NCBI GenBank assembly: GCA_000004985.1
Contig: GG738905.1
Direction: 5' to 3' (one strand)
DNA from: Naegleria gruberi
Taxonomy: Eukaryota
Length of the DNA stretch: 64,000 bases
The position numbers and the translations under genes were made by a program. Positions 1,945 to 18,922 of the stretch are shown in pieces. Each line of letters begins with the position of its first letter. Positions within the stretch are counted from its first letter, which is position 1. Under the pieces are notes generated by a model that saw only the letters and a list, made by a program, of their open reading frames with translations, searched no databases and was not told the DNA's origin.

Positions 1945-3756
1945 TCATGGATTTGCTATTCTGGTTTCTTCTTCCTCTTGAGTATTACTAGTGTTTGAGT
2001 TAGTTTCCTGCTCAGATTTCTCAGTTTTAACAATTATCTTGTTAGCTCTCTCGTGGGCAATCCTAGCTTCCTTAACCCAATCAATTCTAAAAATGATATA
2101 TATAAGAACAATGACAGCCATTAGAACCATACATGACGTCAATCCTAACCATAATCCCAAAAGTTCCAGCTTGGCAACAAATGCCAATAAACTACTAACT
2201 GGTAAACTGAATAAATAATAAGCAATGAGATTGAGGATCATTGTAAGAAATTGAGAGGAGGCTCCTCTCAATACACCAGTGCTAGTTCTCTGAATTCCAT
2301 CTACAATTGCAAATACGGAAATTATTGGAAGAATGGATGAAGCAACACTTCTCACTGATTCATCTGTTGTGTATAAAAGTGGAATCCATCTCGAACATAT
2401 TCCAATAATTGTTCCACTCACACTCATACATACTACAGATGAGAAAATACATAAATAAGCAGCATATTTGGCACCTGACGGATCGTTGGATCCTAATTTC
2501 TGGCCAACCATAACACAAGATGCATTACTCAGTGCCAATGGTAACATGAATGAAAGAGAAGCAATATTAAAAACAATGGAATGAGCCGCCACTTGAACAG
2601 CAGATATGAACGAGGCCACTATGGTTGTAAATTCAAAAGCCCACACTTCTGCACAAACACCAATCGTTCCTGGAATTGCCTGTTTGAAGAAAACCTTAAA
2701 TCCACCTTCCCATTTAAATACCTCATCCCATTTCATAGCTCCAATTAAAATCTCTCTAATATTCTCTCTATGATGAAAAAGAACATAAATATAACTGAAT
2801 ATTATGAATAATCTGGTTAATGTTGTGGCAATGGCTGCTCCTAAAAATCCAATTCCCTTAAATCCAATTCCAAATACAAATAACCAATTCAATCCAAAAT
2901 TCACAATTACGGCAGCAATTGGAATTAAAGTATTTGGTAATCTAATATTGACAGATGTCAAAAATCTTGCAGTTGATCTCGAAAATGCAAATGGAATTAA
3001 TCCAGGTAATAAATATCTAACAAATTGACCTGATAAATGTGAAGTTACTTCATCCATTCCCACTAAATTCAATATAGATTCCAAAAAGAACAAAACTACC
3101 ATAACAGGTAATAAAAATAATATTAAAGTAATGAAACTTCTCATCATCCAAACTCCAACCAATGGTTTGTTTTTTGCACCAAAAGCTTGTGCCACAAACG
3201 TATCCTGACCACTGATAATACCAACAGCAATAAAACTCAAACTAAAAAAGATTGCATTTCCCAATGCTGAACCAGCCATATATTGTGAATTTCCCAAATG
3301 TCCAATAAACATTAAATCTTCAATTCCAAGCATCTTATTTGATACATTCATCAATATTATTGGAAATGCAATATCAATCATGTGTTTAAATTGAGATTTC
3401 ATATTGAAAAATAAATCTTTTAATTTCTCCTTTAGGGAATTTTCATTCTTTCCATTATTGGGTATTAATTCCTCATCACCACCGTCATCATCCAGTATTG
3501 TTGGGAATTCTTTTTCTTCATCATGAATGCCAACTTCGGAAGACAATTCACCTAACATTCTTTCATCATTGTCTTGATTAATACTTGTTGATGAGTGCAA
3601 TGTTGCATTTAATATCGTCGTATCGGTCTTATTAATTGTTAAATGCAATAATGTATCGGGCGAGGAGTTTGAGGGCTGTTCATGGAGGTGTTGAGGCATT
3701 TTTTTGTTGAAAAAGATTCGCGCTAACATGTTACATAATAACCATTTCAATGCCAT
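1945..3756 (-). CDS. MATE (multidrug and toxic compound extrusion) family efflux transporter, 603 aa.
   Basis: Single long ORF with 12 predicted TM helices and MATE-like sequence blocks preceded by a hydrophilic N-terminal extension. The ATG at 3756 sits in AT-rich upstream context. Confidence 0.8.
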   Translation of the reverse strand: MALKWLLCNMLARIFFNKKMPQHLHEQPSNSSPDTLLHLTINKTDTTILNATLHSSTSINQDNDERMLGELSSEVGIHDEEKEFPTILDDDGGDEELIPNNGKNENSLKEKLKDLFFNMKSQFKHMIDIAFPIILMNVSNKMLGIEDLMFIGHLGNSQYMAGSALGNAIFFSLSFIAVGIISGQDTFVAQAFGAKNKPLVGVWMMRSFITLILFLLPVMVVLFFLESILNLVGMDEVTSHLSGQFVRYLLPGLIPFAFSRSTARFLTSVNIRLPNTLIPIAAVIVNFGLNWLFVFGIGFKGIGFLGAAIATTLTRLFIIFSYIYVLFHHRENIREILIGAMKWDEVFKWEGGFKVFFKQAIPGTIGVCAEVWAFEFTTIVASFISAVQVAAHSIVFNIASLSFMLPLALSNASCVMVGQKLGSNDPSGAKYAAYLCIFSSVVCMSVSGTIIGICSRWIPLLYTTDESVRSVASSILPIISVFAIVDGIQRTSTGVLRGASSQFLTMILNLIAYYLFSLPVSSLLAFVAKLELLGLWLGLTSCMVLMAVIVLIYIIFRIDWVKEARIAHERANKIIVKTEKSEQETNSNTSNTQEEEETRIANP

Positions 3757-4059
3757 TTTTGGATTGTTCTAAATACTCAAATGCTTTTAGAATATTATTT
3801 GATTACAATTGTTTTCAGACTCAAATGAACTTGAGAATTCTTAAGGTCAATCAATTTGTGTCCATATCATTTCCATGCTTCTTCCAATAACAAAATCACA
3901 TTTCCATTACAATATTATTTTGTAATTTTCGTGTTTTTTAAAAAGTTCACTAAACATCTCCCAAAATAGCTCTCCACAAATCAAAAAACAAATCAAAATT
4001 ATCCAAATTTAAATCCTTAAAAAAAATTTCTCAAAAAAAACAGCAAACACTAACTTACA

Positions 4060-4665
4060 ATGTCTCAAGTCTCAACAATAGATAACGGAGCAACCTCATC
4101 ATCATCATCGGCAGGAGGGAATTATGATGCCATTTTGGATGCGGGGATTGATAGTATCGATCTTTCAAATCACGTTCATTTGAATAGAGAATTGGAGAAG
4201 GCTTCTGATGATCAAAAAGAAATTGTTTATCCAACTTTGAATTCCGAAATTGCCACTATTGATTCATCAAACAAGGTTGCTGAAAAGAAGGAATTTGTAT
4301 CAAAGGCTCTGTTAGTTTCGATAGGAGTGGGAGGCATGGGTGGTTACATGTCTGGTAATGTTATTAGGATTGGTAGTAGAGTTGTTTTTGGTGCAATTGC
4401 TGCTGTTTTATTGCTCGGAACCACTTTTACTTCAGTTTCAAGAACCTCCCTTAGAAAGAAGACCTCCACGAACAAGATGGTCAATGATTTGGAACAGTAT
4501 GAAATGTTGGCAAAGATTGGAATTGATGCTGCTAATAAGCAATTGCAAAATATTAATTTCAGAGAAATAATAGTTCACAAATGGGATCAACTCAAAGAAT
4601 ATACAAAGGATAATTATGCACTCACAAGTTCATTCTTGTTGGGTTTTATTATTTCCATGTTTTAA
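4060..4665 (+). CDS. Hypothetical small membrane protein (201 aa) with an S-rich N-terminus and a glycine-zipper-like TM segment.
   Basis: ORF with an ATG start and AT-rich flanks. No recognisable family. Coding-like composition. Confidence 0.35.
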   Translation: MSQVSTIDNGATSSSSSAGGNYDAILDAGIDSIDLSNHVHLNRELEKASDDQKEIVYPTLNSEIATIDSSNKVAEKKEFVSKALLVSIGVGGMGGYMSGNVIRIGSRVVFGAIAAVLLLGTTFTSVSRTSLRKKTSTNKMVNDLEQYEMLAKIGIDAANKQLQNINFREIIVHKWDQLKEYTKDNYALTSSFLLGFIISMF

Positions 4666-4704
4666 ATATTATACTGTTACCTTAATAAATTGTTTATATC
4701 CTAA

Positions 4705-6306
4705 CTAGTTATCTGGATTTCTGGAATCGATAACATCGAATATTGAAAGTGCTTCATCTGCCTTTGGATGTCCTTGTTTTTTGGCAATAAGGAAGAATGA
4801 ATAGGCCAACTCTCCATTTTGATTATCCAAAAAGAATTTTCCTAATACGAAACTAGCTCTAGAATTTCCCAATTTAGATGATCTTTGTAAACATGAAAAA
4901 GCATATTCCATATCAGCTTGCTCCCATTCCTGTTCAAACATATGAAGACAACCAGCTCTAAACAAAATACCAGAATTATTTGGATCGATTGACAAATATT
5001 TAGAATAGGTTTGATCTGCCAAATCCAAGTTAGGTTCCAGTAATACTTGTCCACTCTCTGAAACCTTTCCATCCTCATAGAATCCAGCCAATAAACCAAG
5101 TGCCTTAAGATTTCCATTATCTGCTGCCTTTTTTAAATATTCTAAACCTTTCAAATCATCAACTGGTGTGGCAATTCCTAAAAAGTGGAATTCAGCAACT
5201 CTCATTAAAGCATCTGGATAATTTAAATCAGCTGCCTTATTATACCATTCCAATGCCTTTTCATCACTTTTTTCAAATGATTTTCCATATTCATAAAACT
5301 CTCCCAATCTAATCGACAAATATTATTGAAATATTTCACATTATGTTACAACATTTCAATCATTAAAACTATAATTAACATACCTATACATGCATCCTGG
5401 ATTGTTCTTTTCAGCTCCAAGCTCAAACCAAACTCTAGCTGTTGTATTACTTGAAGAGAGGAATTTGGTCTTTAATGGATTTGAAATAAAGTCAAATTCA
5501 AGATAATACTCCTTATAGAATAGCATACCAGCAAAGTAATAAGCTTCTGGATAACCTGATCTGGCACTTTCTAATATAAGTGAATGAATTTGCTTTGCTT
5601 CATATGGAAGAATGAAGGTATTTCTAAGTAATTGAGCTAGTGCCAATGATTTTTCTGGAGTTTTCTCTTTAGAGTAGACTAGTGCTTTTTTCAATAATAA
5701 ATGAGTGTAAACTTGATCGATTTGAATGCTTGCATCCCCTTGTTTCGAATAGAAAACTTTCAAGTTGTGACGATCAGGTGTTGTTTCCTCCTCACTGTCA
5801 TCATTTTCAAAGTTTTCATCCACAAATAAATATTCCAAAGAAGGTAATTTCATTTCCTTCATGCAATTTTCCAATGCTTTCTTCGTAATCTTATTTCTAC
5901 TAATATCCAATAACTTTAATTGATTCCATTTTGAATGATTCATCAATAAATCCAAACATTCATCATTCAATTCACACTCAACTAATCTCAATTCCTCCAA
6001 TTCTTCCCATTCACTATTAGAAACTAACTTTCTAACACTTGATTCGTCTAAATTTCCTCCCAAAATTTGTAAAATCTTCAATCCTTTAAAATTTGAATTT
6101 TCACATATTGCATCCACTTCTTCCGAACCCACTTTCGTATTTAATAGGAATATTCTCTTCAGAGGAGTTTCAATTTTTTGTAATTCTTCCGAGGCAGTGC
6201 TACTTTCACCCAATTCGAATAAAGTTTCTTGCTCCCAATCAATGGCTTCCGAATTGTCCAACTCCTTGTTTGTGTGTGGTAAATTCATAACGTGTTCTGT
6301 TTGCAT
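4705..6306 (-). CDS. Leucine-rich-repeat (RNI-like) plus Sel1/TPR-like repeat protein. Two exons: join(5384..6306, 4705..5308).
   Basis: A 75-nt intron (GTATGT...ATTAG, 5309-5383) links ...NPGCMYR to LGEFYEYGKSFEKSDEKALEWYNKAA... in frame. LRR consensus (LxxLxLxxN) is in the N-terminal half. Repeated Sel1 motifs (A..WY.KAA..G...A) are in the C-terminal half. Confidence 0.7.
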
Positions 6307-6474
6307 TTTTTTTTTCTAGTGTGTGAAATTCAGGTTTCTAATAGATTGTTTAATAGGAATGGGAAATGGATTCTTCAAATTCAATTTCAGAAATTAACAG
6401 CATTGAACTATTTGGAACTATTTCAAATTATGTAACAGTGTGAATATAAATGTTACATTCAAAACAACTGTTGA

Positions 6475-7425
6475 TTGTTTAGAACAAACTTCTACAATAA
6501 GAGTAGTGGAACATGTGAAGTGATAGAAGGGCCTGTTCTCATTACAAAAACACCAGGTCTATTCAGATCCGATATGAGACTATTCCAGGCAGTGAAGAAA
6601 GATTGCTTGACCCATTTAAAAGATGTAGTTGTGTTTTCCTCTTTAGGACCAGAATTTGTACCTTCTCTGATATCTGGAGCTGATTTAGATGGTGACCATT
6701 TTTACATTTTCTGGGATTCTGAGCTTGTGGAGAATATACAATGTGTTGATGAAAAGGAACCATCATCCATATTATCGAATACACCAGTCAATAATAACTC
6801 ATTGAATACTTACAATTGGAGCTGTCTCTATACAAACATTCCAACTTTTTCAGAAGATGTTATCGACAATGTTGGTTTAGAGGATGAATTTGATAATTAT
6901 GAAATAGCCATTAAGAAGTCGTATCAAAAATTGCTATTAGCTCTTGACACTTTCAAATATTGCTCCTTCTCTCACTTACTTGAATTGAGAAGAATTTTTG
7001 TTGATTACTTTGCAATTAATTGGGCAAACAATAATGAATATTACAATATCATGTATCAAATCGCAAATGCCATTACCTGCACCATAGACGCTCCAAAACA
7101 TGGACAGTGGAAAGAATGGAAAGACTTTCTGCCAATCATATCAAATATTCCAAAAAGCCCACATTATTTACTTACAGGGAATTGTACTATTTCACATTCG
7201 ATATTTGGTAAAAATGTAAAGATTGAATGCAATTATGATGGAAATGGTGGCGAAGCTTTTTACCTACTATTCGAAAATTGCCTTAAGAAATATGATTTAG
7301 AAACGTATGACCCTATTTGGACATCTCCAACTCTTGAAAATCCAATTGCAATAGATATTCATGATGACACCAAGGACTACAGAAATAATTTAATCAGTAT
7401 TGGATCAAGCATCAAATCAAATTGA
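6475..7425 (+). pseudogene. Cellular RNA-dependent RNA polymerase (RDR/QDE-1 family) C-terminal catalytic fragment. It is 5'-truncated and has no in-frame ATG before the catalytic block.
   Basis: The translation contains ...GPVLITKTPGLFRSDMRLFQAVKK...VVFSSLGPEFVPSLISGADLDGDHFYIFWDSELV... The DLDGD-x-Y-x-x-WD signature and the upstream v.v.R.P..h.gD block are diagnostic of eukaryotic RdRPs. A downstream ...IDAPKHGQW block matches the RdRP ...AVDfpKTG region. A TGA stop immediately precedes the ORF. The roughly 700-aa N-terminal region expected for this family is absent, and the upstream DNA is occupied by an opposite-strand gene. Confidence 0.5.
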
Positions 7426-7477
7426 AATAATAATAATCATAAACTAACTATTAAAGACATGTTAAATATTATTTAAT

Positions 7478-7720
7478 TTATTTATTAACACCTGGGAAGG
7501 AATCAACGTATTTAATCTTAAAATCAGGGAAGGAATCAACAATTTTAATCTTGTAATCAGGGAAGGAATCAACAATTTTCCATTTACCTGCAGAATCAGG
7601 GAAGGAATCAACAAGTTTAACTTTGAGATCAGGGAAGGAATCGACAATTTTAACTTTATAATCTGGGAAACTGTCAACGAATTTAATCTTTCCGTAAATC
7701 TTGGAAACGTCTGGAGCCAT
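7478..7720 (-). CDS. Small (80 aa) tandem-repeat protein made of six 11-aa units (VDSFPD-x-K-[IV]-K-[IL]).
   Basis: ATG at 7720. The ORF translates MAPDVSKIYGKIKFVDSFPDYKVKIVDSFPDLKVKLVDSFPD... The underlying DNA is a 33-bp tandem repeat. Confidence 0.4.
   Translation of the reverse strand: MAPDVSKIYGKIKFVDSFPDYKVKIVDSFPDLKVKLVDSFPDSAGKWKIVDSFPDYKIKIVDSFPDFKIKYVDSFPGVNK
7490..7690. repeat. 33-bp tandem repeat array (about 6 copies, unit roughly cagggaaggaatcaacaattttaatcttgtaat) that encodes the repeat protein above.
   Basis: Direct reading of the sequence. Units are near-identical at 33-nt periodicity. Confidence 0.7.
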
Positions 7721-7952
7721 TGTTTATTTGTTTTTTTTTGATCTAATTAAAACTACATCTTTTCTAATCAAAATGATTTTATTGGTTGTTGTGAAATTCA
7801 CACAACATCATGTTCTGACATGTTCCAATAAAAAAGGAAGAAAATGATGCTTCATCATTATATCCATCAATCGAGTCAGTGGTTACAATATTAGAAACTA
7901 CAGATATTTTACAGTTTCAAGTTGATAGGTTTTTATTTTAAACCAAGTTTAA

Positions 7953-9506
7953 TTACAATTCATCCTTACGAGTTGTTGGTGTAAGGATTTTGAGGTAAAT
8001 TTCAAGGATTTTCTTTTCTGATTGAATGTATCTGACAGCACATTTCTGAGACATGGTCACAGGAAGTCTTTTTCCTAGTATTGATTCATTTTCTTGTATC
8101 ATTTCAATAATATTATCCAATCTTTGTTTGATGAGTCCTCTAATTGTTTCAATGACAATCTTTTCATTTCTATCCGAAATTGGGTTGATTAGGATTTTAG
8201 CAATCATGTCTCTCTTCTGATCCAATGGTGCTAATGAATTGGCAATATCAGAGAGGGCCTTAATTTCCACTGAATCACAGCTCAATATTCTCATAATGGC
8301 AATAATATTCGGATCAAATATTTCACTGAGAGTATGTTCTACTAAATTAAAGCTATCATCATTATAGTAGAGAGTTTGTGTGAGATGATATTCATCAAGG
8401 GAGGTCATTGAGAGTAAACGCACTCTTTGATTGTTGAGCTTCTTATCGACAGTGGACATTCTCCTCATTACAGATTCTCTCATATCAATAACAGTGATAG
8501 TATTATTCAAAAACTCAATTTCTGGATCATCCAATGGACAAAAACCATAATCCATCATGAGAATATGATTCAGTGTTGGAGTTAATTTTCCATACTTTAC
8601 AAAAAGTTGATTTCCAGCTTTGACTCTCTTTGATGTTTTGAAAATGAGCTCATTGGTCTTCTTGTCAGTGTAAGAAATTACATTTGCACCAGTCTTTGAA
8701 AAGTTAATAATATCACCCAATGGAACAAAACATGAACGATCTGTCTTGATTCTGTAATCATAAATCGAGTGAATTCTAGACCAACTGAGAGAAACAAAAT
8801 GTTCAAATAATCCAAGAGTAATTGAAGAAGTGTTTCTAATTGGTTCTAATACTGTCAAATCATTCAATAATGGATTGACAATTTTTTGAAATGAATTGGC
8901 AATACTTTGTCTTCTTGTAAGAGCTGATGGAAGTAATGTAGACCCCTTCAATAATGTTAATTCTTCTCCACCAAAAAGGAATGCTACTTTTGGACCTTCA
9001 TCACGAAATGGTCTTGGTAGAGATCCAATATATGGAGTGAATTTGACAGCATCAGCATCAAACTTCATTTCAGGATTGCTTGATTGAGCCAAATTAAATA
9101 AATAAACAATCATCAAAACCATTGCATTAAAAATTGACAAATCCCCTTCCTGTAATCTCTTTAAAGTATCCAATGACTTGGCATTCTCATGTTTAAATAA
9201 TTTTTCAAATATAAATTTCGAATCCAGCAAGGTCTCTTGTTTTAATTTAAACAAAATTGTATTCTGTTTAATATCTTTAGTGGCAACAAGTGCCTTTCCA
9301 AAATCAACCACTTGTTTAATTTCAAATAAATTATCATTCACCTCCGAATGTTCCTCTTCTCTCATCCACTTTGTCAATAAATTAAATCTTTCATCATTCG
9401 ATGCCACAACAACACTCCAATGATAACAAAATACCATCATTGTCATCAATAAGAACATCATCACAAAATTCCTTGATGATGAATGATGAGCTTTCATGTT
9501 GGGCAT
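7953..9506 (-). CDS. SET-domain protein of the Rubisco-LSMT/SETD3/4/6-like class, with an N-terminal signal peptide and a C-terminal KDEL.
   Basis: Hydrophobic N-terminus (MMFLLMTMMVFCYHWSVVVA). SET N-region pattern ...W....G..........GKALVA..I..N..L...P. ...FVPLGDIINFS... and the ...LMMDYGFCPLDDP block are characteristic of LSMT-like SET domains. The protein ends ...TTRKDEL, a KDEL ER-retention signal. Confidence 0.6.
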   Translation of the reverse strand: MPNMKAHHSSSRNFVMMFLLMTMMVFCYHWSVVVASNDERFNLLTKWMREEEHSEVNDNLFEIKQVVDFGKALVATKDIKQNTILFKLKQETLLDSKFIFEKLFKHENAKSLDTLKRLQEGDLSIFNAMVLMIVYLFNLAQSSNPEMKFDADAVKFTPYIGSLPRPFRDEGPKVAFLFGGEELTLLKGSTLLPSALTRRQSIANSFQKIVNPLLNDLTVLEPIRNTSSITLGLFEHFVSLSWSRIHSIYDYRIKTDRSCFVPLGDIINFSKTGANVISYTDKKTNELIFKTSKRVKAGNQLFVKYGKLTPTLNHILMMDYGFCPLDDPEIEFLNNTITVIDMRESVMRRMSTVDKKLNNQRVRLLSMTSLDEYHLTQTLYYNDDSFNLVEHTLSEIFDPNIIAIMRILSCDSVEIKALSDIANSLAPLDQKRDMIAKILINPISDRNEKIVIETIRGLIKQRLDNIIEMIQENESILGKRLPVTMSQKCAVRYIQSEKKILEIYLKILTPTTRKDEL

Positions 9507-16921: not shown

Positions 16922-18922
16922 ATGAGTTTTCTCTTTGGCAGCAAGAAAAAGGAGAATTTATTTGATAAATTAAACCAAAACAACAATACAGTTAATAATG
17001 TCTATGGGGAGACAACGGGTCTTCTCTCGGCACAATATAGCTCGAGTACGAGTGGAGGAAGTCCTCCGAGTAATAATCAAGAGAAGGCTAATACAATATT
17101 TTCAGAGTTGAGTTCGTTCAAGCCTCCAGAGGGTGAACATAATTTAAATCCAATACGGAGTGATTTTGCAATAATGAAAAAACAATCTTTTAAAAAGGAG
17201 GAGGATTATTTTACTAAACAAAACGAGGAAAAGAAACCAGTACAAATATCATTGCAAGAAAAGGTTCACGGATTATTTATTGATTTATCGTATGCTTTGG
17301 GAATTTATGGAGTACCATCACATAGATTGGAAATGCATTTGAAAACATTATTTGATTGTTTTCCATTGGAGAAATGTGAATTTAGATATACACCATCAAG
17401 TTTGTGGTTTTGCTTTACCCCAAATTTTAATTTAAATAGGAATGATGAATATGAGGAGGGAGATGGAATAGTTACTCATAACAGTAATGCATACCTCTCT
17501 AAATCAAAGTTTTATGTTGTAAAATTGGATGAATATGATTTGGAAGATATGGATTTGGTTAAATTATGTGAGTTGGATCAATTGGCTTCGGAAATTCCAG
17601 AGTTAATGGCCGTTACAGAAAATAATCCTGAATCACTTTCAAATTTAATTGATGATTTAAGAGGAAGAATTAGAACAATTATTTCGAGATATTCTTTTGT
17701 GAGATCTGCTATCAGATTATTTATTGCCAATCTTATTTCAGCAAGTATGTGGGTAATGTACTATGATGGATCATGGATGGAAATGTTGTGCGGTTTAATC
17801 GTGGGCATTGCAACAGGAATTCTTGTTGTAATTGCTGAAAAATATCCATCTTTTAATAGAGTCAATCCATTTATTTCTGCCATTGTTGCAGGTACAGTTG
17901 CTTCTCTTACTAAGGTTATTTTCTCCAAAATGTTGACTGAGGAGGACAGGGGCAAATATCCATTTTCTGTCTTTCTGGTGACACTTTGTGCACTATTCGG
18001 TTTGCTTCCTCATGTCAGTTTTACAAATGGAATATCCGAGTTGGCTACAAAGAATTTAGTTTCTGGGTCTATGAGAGTTTTCTACGCGTTTGTTCTCATT
18101 CTACAGGTATGTTTTAATTCATTTGCACAATTCTAATAATGCTGAATTTTTCAGATGGGATTTGGAATAGTTGTTGCTGATAAGATTAGTTATTTATTCA
18201 ATATTTCAATGTTGGAGGAAAATTATTTCAAGAATGGACAGGATGATAGAGAGGAATTACCACTTTGGCTTGGATGTCTTTGTTTACCTACAATCATTCT
18301 GGGTAATTATTTGGATTACAAATTGCCCATTGTTTTCAAGGATCCAAATTCTGAGCAACATTTTTATTCTGACAATGATGTTTTTTACAATTTCACAACT
18401 TTTTATCATTACATGATTAGAAAGATCAAGACCATTCACTTGCCAACATTTGGATTTGTTGTTCTAGTTTCATATGCTGTCTATGTTACAACCACAGTAA
18501 CAGATGACTTTGTTGGGGAGGAAATGTCTTGTCTTCTAGGAGCTTTTATTGGTAGGTTATTAATTTCATTTTGAAACTCAAAATTAATAATAATTAATAA
18601 TAAGGAGGAACCATTGCTAATATTTATGCGTATGTAACAAATAGACCAGAGTTGGTCATCTCAATCAAGTAAGTATTTATTCATAAGAAACAACTCATTC
18701 TCTTAAACCCTTAGTTGTTTGGATTTACTGGTACCAAGTACTTATGGTGTCACAGGCATTGCTAAATTTTACGATAGAGATCAAAGTGATGAGCTGCAGT
18801 CTGGAATCAAGTTTATTGCTGACTTGTTGGTGATCCATCTTTCTTTATCTATTGGTTTGCTTCTTTCAGATTTAGTATCTCCAAAACAGAAAACAAAGAG
18901 TGGGAGTTTTACAATAGTATAA
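16922..18922 (+). CDS. ThrE/DUF1212-DUF3815-like multi-pass membrane protein. Four exons: join(16922..18106, 18155..18551, 18605..18668, 18715..18922).
   Basis: Introns of 48, 53 and 46 nt (GTATGT..TTCAG, GTAGGT..AATAAG, GTAAGT..CTTAG) link four ORF segments in consistent phase. The DUF1212-like block is ...IDLSYALGIYGVPSHRLEMHLKTLFDCF... The C-terminal half has multiple TM helices. Confidence 0.6.

Follow-up and report, generated by a model that had tools for sequence, protein, structure and literature searches.

The 64,000-nucleotide stretch of Naegleria gruberi DNA analysed here (hereafter the window) contains an open reading frame (ORF) that matches part of a cellular RNA-dependent RNA polymerase (RdRP). 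The ORF and the features in and around it are listed in Table 1.

The locus and its gene models

At the local base composition, a run of 316 stop-free codons has a chance of occurrence of about 1.6e-11. The first-pass annotation of this DNA correctly described the ORF as opening directly after a TGA and the DNA upstream of it as the 5′ end of an opposite-strand gene, the ATG of which lies 168 bp away. Its further statement, that no ATG lies upstream of the catalytic region, does not hold: the first in-frame ATG (6574-6576) is ORF residue 34 and stands 108 nt 5′ of the DLDGD codons. The dictyostelid frame of reference in which the ORF had been discussed is likewise misplaced, as the ORF product is 100% identical to N. 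gruberi EFC38661.1 (XP_002671405.1; UniProt D2VWQ3; P0001 in our protein set). The public model is recorded as a ‘predicted protein’ and carries in UniProt the name ‘RNA-dependent RNA polymerase’. The ORF and its family assignment are already public; in the literature searched, no paper names the gene identifiers.

Both flanks of the ORF are occupied by opposite-strand genes, at spacings of 168 bp and 52 bp, and the neighbouring genes are exact matches to N. gruberi models. The divergent neighbour, NAEGRDRAFT_73463, contains a 75-nt intron (5309-5383); its spliced translation matches EFC38736.1 exactly and scores against Pfam Sel1 with E=7.6e-19, and no other Sel1 gene occurs in the 64 kb. The window is about 33% G+C and has no N runs or assembly gaps, and the locus is internal to a scaffold of 290,827 bp. 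Up to position 5992, the upstream flank is colinear with contigs from ERR1078381 (PRJEB11402), at 98.1% for a metagenome contig and 99.6% for a Logan contig; the strain is 98% identical to the window over 2777-5992, and the contigs stop short of the ORF, at 5992 and 5838. Searches around the ORF found no flanking repeats or transposon signature, and positions 5000-9000 gave no Rfam match.

Table 1. Coordinates of the ORF, its parts and its surroundings, in the numbering of the window
Feature	Position	Strand	Description
Divergent neighbour NAEGRDRAFT_73463	4705-6306	-	508 aa; ATG at 6306; LRR-like N-terminus and Sel1 repeats
Spacer from ORF to divergent neighbour	6307-6474		168 bp, without RdRP remnant
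In-frame TGA	6472-6474	+	Directly 5′ of the ORF, 5 to 11 codons before the first detectable homology
Stop-to-stop ORF, whole feature	6475-7425	+	316 codons plus TGA stop
In-frame codons before the first ATG	6475-6573	+	33 codons; conserved RdRP strand CEVIEGPVLITKTPGLFRSD; 5′ UTR under the public model
RdRP-homologous core	6508-7212	+	ORF residues 12-246, matching profile states 595-795 of 1077; score 213.7
Public gene model NAEGRDRAFT_73464	6574-7425	+	283 aa; begins at the first in-frame ATG
Motif SGADLDGDHFYIFWD	6673-6717	+	DLDGD codons 6682-6696; within DPBB2
Variable low-confidence insertion	6772-6891	+	Residues 100-139, between barrel and helical segment; pLDDT 38-53
Downstream conserved RdRP motifs	7090-7167	+	APKHG 7090-7104; PHY 7159-7167
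Tail	7213-7422	+	70 codons, residues 247-316; mostly disordered by prediction, pLDDT 36-52

Retained and missing parts of the polymerase

The ORF scores 84.9 bits (E=6.7e-24) with the profile of the Pfam RdRP family, PF05183, for which the gathering cut-off is 23.8; the match covers only positions 375-465 of the 582-position profile. An exhaustive phmmer search over 1.84 billion representatives returned 1477 RdRP-family matches at E<=1e-3, and the only solved structures matched by the ORF are Neurospora QDE-1 and plant RDR2. Judged by these sequence comparisons, the assignment to the cellular RdRPs, which are two-barrel polymerases, is far above chance. The first-pass annotation had pointed to a diagnostic RDR catalytic motif and had named the absence of an RDR-family profile match as a finding that would speak against its reading; both the motif, SGADLDGDHFYIFWD, and the profile match are present.

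Within this motif, DLDGD (residues 70-74) holds the catalytic aspartate triad D70/D72/D74. In an alignment of 30 sequences, D70, D72, G73 and D74 are invariant, P207, K208 and P229 are nearly so, and all family-invariant residues of the covered region are present in the ORF. The DLDGD of the ORF aligns with the catalytic loop of QDE-1 and RDR2, and its triad is equivalent to D1007 of QDE-1 and two partner aspartates.

A profile of 1077 match states, derived from an alignment of 30 full-length relatives, was run against all stop-to-stop ORFs in the six frames of the 64 kb. The core defined in this way corresponds to residues 608-847 of the nearest relative, P0002, a 1107-aa protein encoded as a single ORF on a metagenome contig of an uncultured eukaryote (ERZ27315067 k141_365260), which has 45% identity over the core and a tblastn E-value of 1e-43. 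In the other ORFs of the window the full-length profile gives only noise (E>0.4), tblastn of 80 full-length RdRPs against the 64 kb found no second RdRP piece, and a profile covering the first 420 residues of the closest subfamily has no match there. Weak C-terminal ‘hits’ in the window proved to be a WD40 protein, a PRKCSH protein, an ORF without a Pfam match and an NmrA protein.

Measured against its relatives, the ORF is short of about 600 residues at the N-terminus and about 260 at the C-terminus, leaving profile states 1-594 and 796-1077 unmatched. The block that it shares with them is preceded in the relatives by 322-732 residues and followed by 164-826; in P0002 these lengths are 604 and 259. 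The six-frame profile and tblastn searches thus bear out the earlier description of a truncated cellular RdRP piece whose N-terminus is not encoded upstream. The label ‘C-terminal fragment’ has to be dropped, since about 260 residues are also missing from that end. By homology, the ORF is an internal RdRP fragment, roughly the middle third, that includes the metal-binding loop.

The solved structure of QDE-1 allows this fragment to be placed among the domains of the enzyme. In QDE-1, the slab spans residues 390-646 and the catalytic domain residues 647-807 and 914-1161 (Salgado et al. 2006, PMC1750930); the two barrels lie at 680-782 (DPBB1) and 916-1018 (DPBB2, containing D1007), and the enzyme requires slab, DPBB1, DPBB2, neck and head, its dimers forming mainly via the head (PMC1750930). 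With the offset taken from the match of the triad to D1007, ORF residue 16 corresponds to about residue 953 of QDE-1, which places the start of the fragment inside DPBB2 and its end near that of the second catalytic-domain segment. The fragment keeps the distal part of DPBB2, which carries the Mg-binding DLDGD loop, and the next helical segment up to the PHY and S-x-S-x-x-G motifs, approximately the second catalytic-domain segment of QDE-1. The TDGCG motif and the DPBB1 motif PSAFQIR-x-x-G-x-KGML are absent from the ORF and from every frame of the 64 kb. Also absent, from the ORF as well as from the candidate exon and the same-frame read-through considered below, is the LYGV-x-D motif of the first DPBB2 strands, in which Y399, G400 and D403 are invariant (alignment A2). 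The ORF therefore does not hold a complete DPBB2, and the slab and the neck and head domains are missing as well; the 64 kb encodes none of these parts.

Structure prediction is consistent with this placement. The AlphaFold model has a mean pLDDT of 70, is confident at residues 11-99 and 140-250, and is poor at residues 100-139 and 251-316. Its best structural matches are RDR2 and QDE-1, of whose chains it covers about 15%, with a target-normalised TM-score of 0.13-0.17. Over the catalytic loop region of these two enzymes, the fragment gives alignments of 32-40 bits (E-values from 3e-9 to 7e-7), and the model superposes on that region; compared with the whole of QDE-1, the fragment is limited to part of DPBB2 and the catalytic-domain helices that follow it. 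The insertion at residues 100-139 has 15% identity to P0002, and its codon usage is still gene-like. The ORF alone does not supply a two-barrel active site and so should not polymerise RNA; we infer that the isolated fragment is without RNA-templated polymerase activity.

Borders of the homology and the tail

At the upstream border, the RdRP-like sequence begins before the only in-frame start codon. The conserved strand VIEGPVLITKTPGLFRSD lies 5′ of the ATG at 6574, and 13 of the 28 residues of the block before this ATG are identical to P0002; we found no supported route by which the CEVIEGPVLITKTPGLFRSD block would be translated. A candidate first exon with an ATG start (6366-6439), joined through a 43-nt GT..AG intron (6440-6482), would give a 338-aa product. 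It brings no gain in homology (214.4 bits, against 213.5-217.2 for shuffled-exon controls), raises the Pfam score by only 1.5 bits and does not match the N-terminal subfamily profile. Its donor, GTGAAT, is weak, the likely introns of the window having GTA[A/T]GT, and 73% of shuffled upstream sequences permit some exon model of this kind. Spliced upstream exons encoding the RdRP N-terminus had been named in the first-pass annotation as the other finding that would overturn its reading, and this candidate, adding no homology, does not do so. Same-frame read-through of the upstream TGA and TAA, an idea that came from a few tblastn alignments, was also rejected, as 54 of 200 shuffles score at least as high.

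At the downstream border, clear homology stops at SIFG (7207-7209). The tail that follows has no homologue in RdRP C-termini, in Pfam or in the rest of the window, and it is coding-like in the frame of the ORF. The tail has a per-codon score of 0.321, where genes average 0.331 (sd 0.151) and random stop-free sequence averages 0.003 (sd 0.094); none of 2000 random samples reaches the value of the tail, and 4.5% of naturally open stretches in non-coding frames do. RdRP-derived sequence may extend past 7209, as a candidate extension of the core. A GT and an AG mark the limits of a 48-nt in-frame stretch (7208-7255), and the sequence that comes next, FYLLFENCLKKY, loosely resembles the L-Y-x-x-L helix of the relatives.

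Relatives, constraint and origin of the fragment

The closest relatives of the fragment lie outside N. gruberi. After the ORF’s own entry, the best phmmer match is a foreign 1107-aa protein with 40% identity, and three further full-length RdRPs have 41-42% identity over the core: P0003 from Pedospumella encystans (EukProt P015634, 978 aa), P0004 (LNAP01007388, 874 aa) and P0007 (from JGI). The ORF and RdRPs of the P0002 type have in common the motifs VI-x-TKTP, SGADLDGDHF, YCS-x-x-HLL-x-LRR-x-F-x-D, APKHG-x-W and PHY, and in both P0002 and P0003 the Pfam match ends near profile position 466-479, like that of the fragment. The difference lies in what surrounds the shared block, as P0002 has about 600 residues before it and about 260 after it, with DPBB1 and LYGV-x-D, and the fragment has neither. 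No synteny was found between the ORF locus and the P0002 contig.

Three full-length RdRPs are annotated in N. gruberi (XP_002679167.1, 1235 aa; XP_002670772.1, 1384 aa; XP_002676936.1, 1745 aa). In the phmmer search they rank below the best foreign match. They share with the fragment the organism, the Pfam family and the DLDGD loop; Sel1 repeats are present at the C-terminus of all three, and a TLDc domain in one. Their core identity is 51-53% among themselves and only 31-36% to the fragment, which on this comparison makes them a different subfamily and not its parent. The suggestion that the ORF is a duplicated gene fragment is not supported, given the 41-45% core identity of the foreign full-length RdRPs. 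Among the annotated N. gruberi proteins of the searched collection, which comprises proteins only and not whole-genome DNA, there is no closer full-length parent. No close viral or metagenomic relative or orthologue was found, an alignment-based scan returning distant RdRPs only, and none of the searched collections holds an orthologue of the truncated ORF. Word-index protein searches returned neither a parent nor an N-terminal-only N. gruberi protein; the same searches missed the query’s own relatives, so that their negative outcome counts for little.

We also looked for signs of decay. The frame is intact and the alignment with P0002 contains no frameshift, so the ORF is not a pseudogene in the sense of a disrupted frame, and codon usage is gene-like in both its body and its tail. 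Of the columns that are invariant in four relatives, the fragment keeps 39/46, and P0002 keeps 39/50 in the reciprocal test. A Tajima-type relative-rate comparison with three outgroups gave 18 vs 25, 17 vs 29 and 18 vs 18 unique substitutions for the fragment vs P0002, and with none of the three is there a significant acceleration on the fragment lineage. Relaxed constraint is not seen, and the loss of essential coding parts is evident. The earlier term ‘pseudogene’ consequently holds for the lost coding parts, and does not for the frame, the kept residues or the rate; pseudogene status would plausibly fit only a very young one.

We put the probability at about 0.55 that the ORF stands alone as the remnant of a recently truncated cellular RdRP gene in N. 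gruberi. The source would have been a lineage-specific RdRP and not one of the three Sel1-fused N. gruberi RdRPs; its subfamily would be the one represented in other organisms by full-length proteins of ~980-1110 aa. The truncation would be evolutionarily recent, with both flanks of the former full-length gene lost, and the 283-aa public model would be a dying gene piece annotated on the strength of its ORF. Such a recent truncation would account for the open frame, for the kept residues including the catalytic triad, for the lack of acceleration and for the conserved block 5′ of the only ATG. Several observations stand against it. An intact 316-codon frame and gene-like codon usage, even in the tail, are what is expected of a living gene; by a rough estimate, a neutral relic would be open by luck only if it were no more than about 2% sequence divergence old (<= ~2%), which is a narrow window. 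Moreover, the loss of both flanks between neighbours that stand as close as 168 bp and 52 bp calls for at least two rearrangements. If the ORF is a relic, N. gruberi once had a fourth RdRP, of a subfamily distinct from the three that it retained, and surveys of RNAi machinery should leave NAEGRDRAFT_73464 out of their tally of functional RdRPs.

The same intact frame (P ~1.6e-11) and gene-like codon usage in body and tail would be expected if the ORF were a living truncated gene, whose protein of about 280-340 aa is kept by selection in a non-autonomous role; we regard this reading as tentative and less likely than a relic. Full-length RdRPs or the LRR-Sel1 neighbour might be the partners of such a protein, which could possibly serve them as a regulator, decoy or scaffold; with the neighbour, the ORF may also share a bidirectional promoter. 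In its favour, Sel1 repeats occur in 3/3 full-length N. gruberi RdRPs and the window’s only Sel1 gene lies 168 bp away in divergent orientation; the lack of acceleration and a retention of invariant residues equal to that of a full-length enzyme also fit. However, a conserved strand block lies 5′ of the only in-frame ATG, and the sole candidate upstream exon, with its weak GTGAAT donor, adds no homology and is matched by similar models in 73% of shuffles. The barrel is incomplete, the tail is predicted to be disordered and an orthologue is absent from all searched collections, and a non-catalytic role leaves the perfect catalytic triad unexplained. That the catalytic and all family-invariant positions are kept is best understood if the active site remains in use, as it would in a split RdRP whose N- and C-terminal parts are encoded elsewhere. 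The ORF would then supply the aspartate half-barrel of a two-barrel enzyme, and the rest would be joined to it by trans-splicing or distant exons, with borders at 6481-6482 and 7208-7209, or would be made as separate subunits, much as multisubunit RNA polymerases have their two barrels on different chains; the LRR-Sel1 neighbour might participate, mirroring the RdRP-Sel1 fusions. The AG at 6481-6482, just before the homology, and the GT at 7208-7209, at its end, are compatible with exon borders, but both candidate splice signals are weak and GT and AG dinucleotides are common by chance. With no other RdRP piece on either strand of the 64 kb and both flanks taken by opposite-strand genes, we consider such an arrangement very unlikely. 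To our knowledge, no case of trans-splicing of coding exons is known from Naegleria, which also counts against it. Least credible, and very unlikely, is an assembly or annotation artefact in which a scaffold mis-join broke a full-length gene. The abruptness of both homology borders is all that speaks for it and nothing does so directly; against it, the locus lies without N runs within a 290,827-bp scaffold, independent contigs run colinear with the upstream flank (98.1% and 99.6%, as far as 5992), and the neighbour’s gene model is exact.

A recently truncated remnant remains our preferred reading. Should the ORF instead be expressed and selected, it would offer a case from nature in which the catalytic half-barrel of a two-barrel polymerase stands alone, and would bear on how the two barrels came to share a single chain in RdRPs and to be divided between two in multisubunit RNA polymerases. 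Unlike the multisubunit enzymes, the fragment gives no sign of a second-barrel partner chain or of membership at the sequence level. Its predicted barrel nevertheless bears a weak structural resemblance to the DPBB of the largest subunit (Rpb1/beta-prime; Foldseek E ~1.5-4), and in multisubunit RNA polymerases, as in the fragment, the aspartate-bearing barrel is on a chain without the other barrel.

The 3′ border of RdRP homology and introns in the window

Clear RdRP homology of the fragment stops at the residues SIFG, and precisely at this border, after SIFG, GT and AG flank an in-frame segment of 48 nt. Directly 3′ of this segment lies FYLLFENCLKKY, which is similar to the L-Y-x-x-L helix of the fragment's relatives. 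The segment may represent either a short intron, whose GTAAAA donor would be weak, or an insertion of 16 residues. At 48 and 75 nt, the likely introns in the window are short; both start with GTATGT, and the longer of them is confirmed by the exact match between the spliced product and a public protein.

Features around the RdRP fragment and likely introns of the window
Feature	Position	Strand	Remarks
NAEGRDRAFT_73463, LRR-Sel1 gene	4705-6306	-	divergent to the RdRP fragment, 168 bp apart
Intron, 75 nt	5309-5383	-	GTATGT start
In-frame 48-nt segment	7208-7255	+	flanked by GT and AG
33-nt repeat family	7461-7717		overlaps the 80-codon ORF
80-codon ORF, 11-residue repeats	7478-7720	-	convergent with the RdRP ORF
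SET + Rubisco-LSMT-substrate-binding gene	7953-9506	-	single-ORF translation, 517 aa
Likely intron, 48 nt	18107-18154	+	GTATGT start

Sel1 repeats and the architecture of related RdRPs

In all three full-length N. gruberi RdRPs (P0013, P0015 and P0017) the RdRP domain is followed on its C-terminal side by Sel1 repeats; one of the three additionally contains a TLDc domain. Within the 64 kb window, Sel1 repeats are encoded by a single gene, NAEGRDRAFT_73463, the divergent neighbour of the RdRP fragment, and its Sel1 region aligns with P0017 at 27% identity (E=1e-10). The presence of Sel1 repeats both on the RdRPs and in the gene that adjoins the fragment could reflect a functional RdRP-Sel1 link, or this adjacency could be a coincidence.

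Several relatives, among them P0005, P0009 and P0018, align twice to the RdRP fragment and therefore have two catalytic RdRP regions per predicted protein; they come from Panagrolaimus (1309 aa), Panaeolus cyanescens (2098 aa) and Anneissia japonica (1730 aa). Either the region was duplicated in tandem or separate gene models were fused. RdRP-helicase fusions are found among other relatives.

Downstream genes and a related Naegleria strain

A small ORF of 80 codons, convergent with the RdRP ORF, ends 52 bp downstream of it; nearly all of its product consists of six 11-residue repeats (K-x-K-x-VDSFPD-x). A Pfam search of this ORF gave no match, and it may be unannotated, because its exact product is absent from a collection of 15 billion proteins. 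The exact single-ORF translation of the SET gene was likewise not found in the protein collection; the publicly annotated version of the gene is probably different, perhaps using another start codon or including an intron.

A Naegleria strain closely matching the window at the DNA level is present in a metagenome sample (PRJEB11402, run ERR1078381): one assembled contig (L029; ENA ERZ929261 k127_35744) matches 2777-5992 at 98.1% DNA identity with 47 gap positions, and another (L028; Logan ERR1078381) matches 4591-5838 at 99.6%. Both contigs end before the RdRP ORF, and the sample is ready material for a strain comparison of that ORF.
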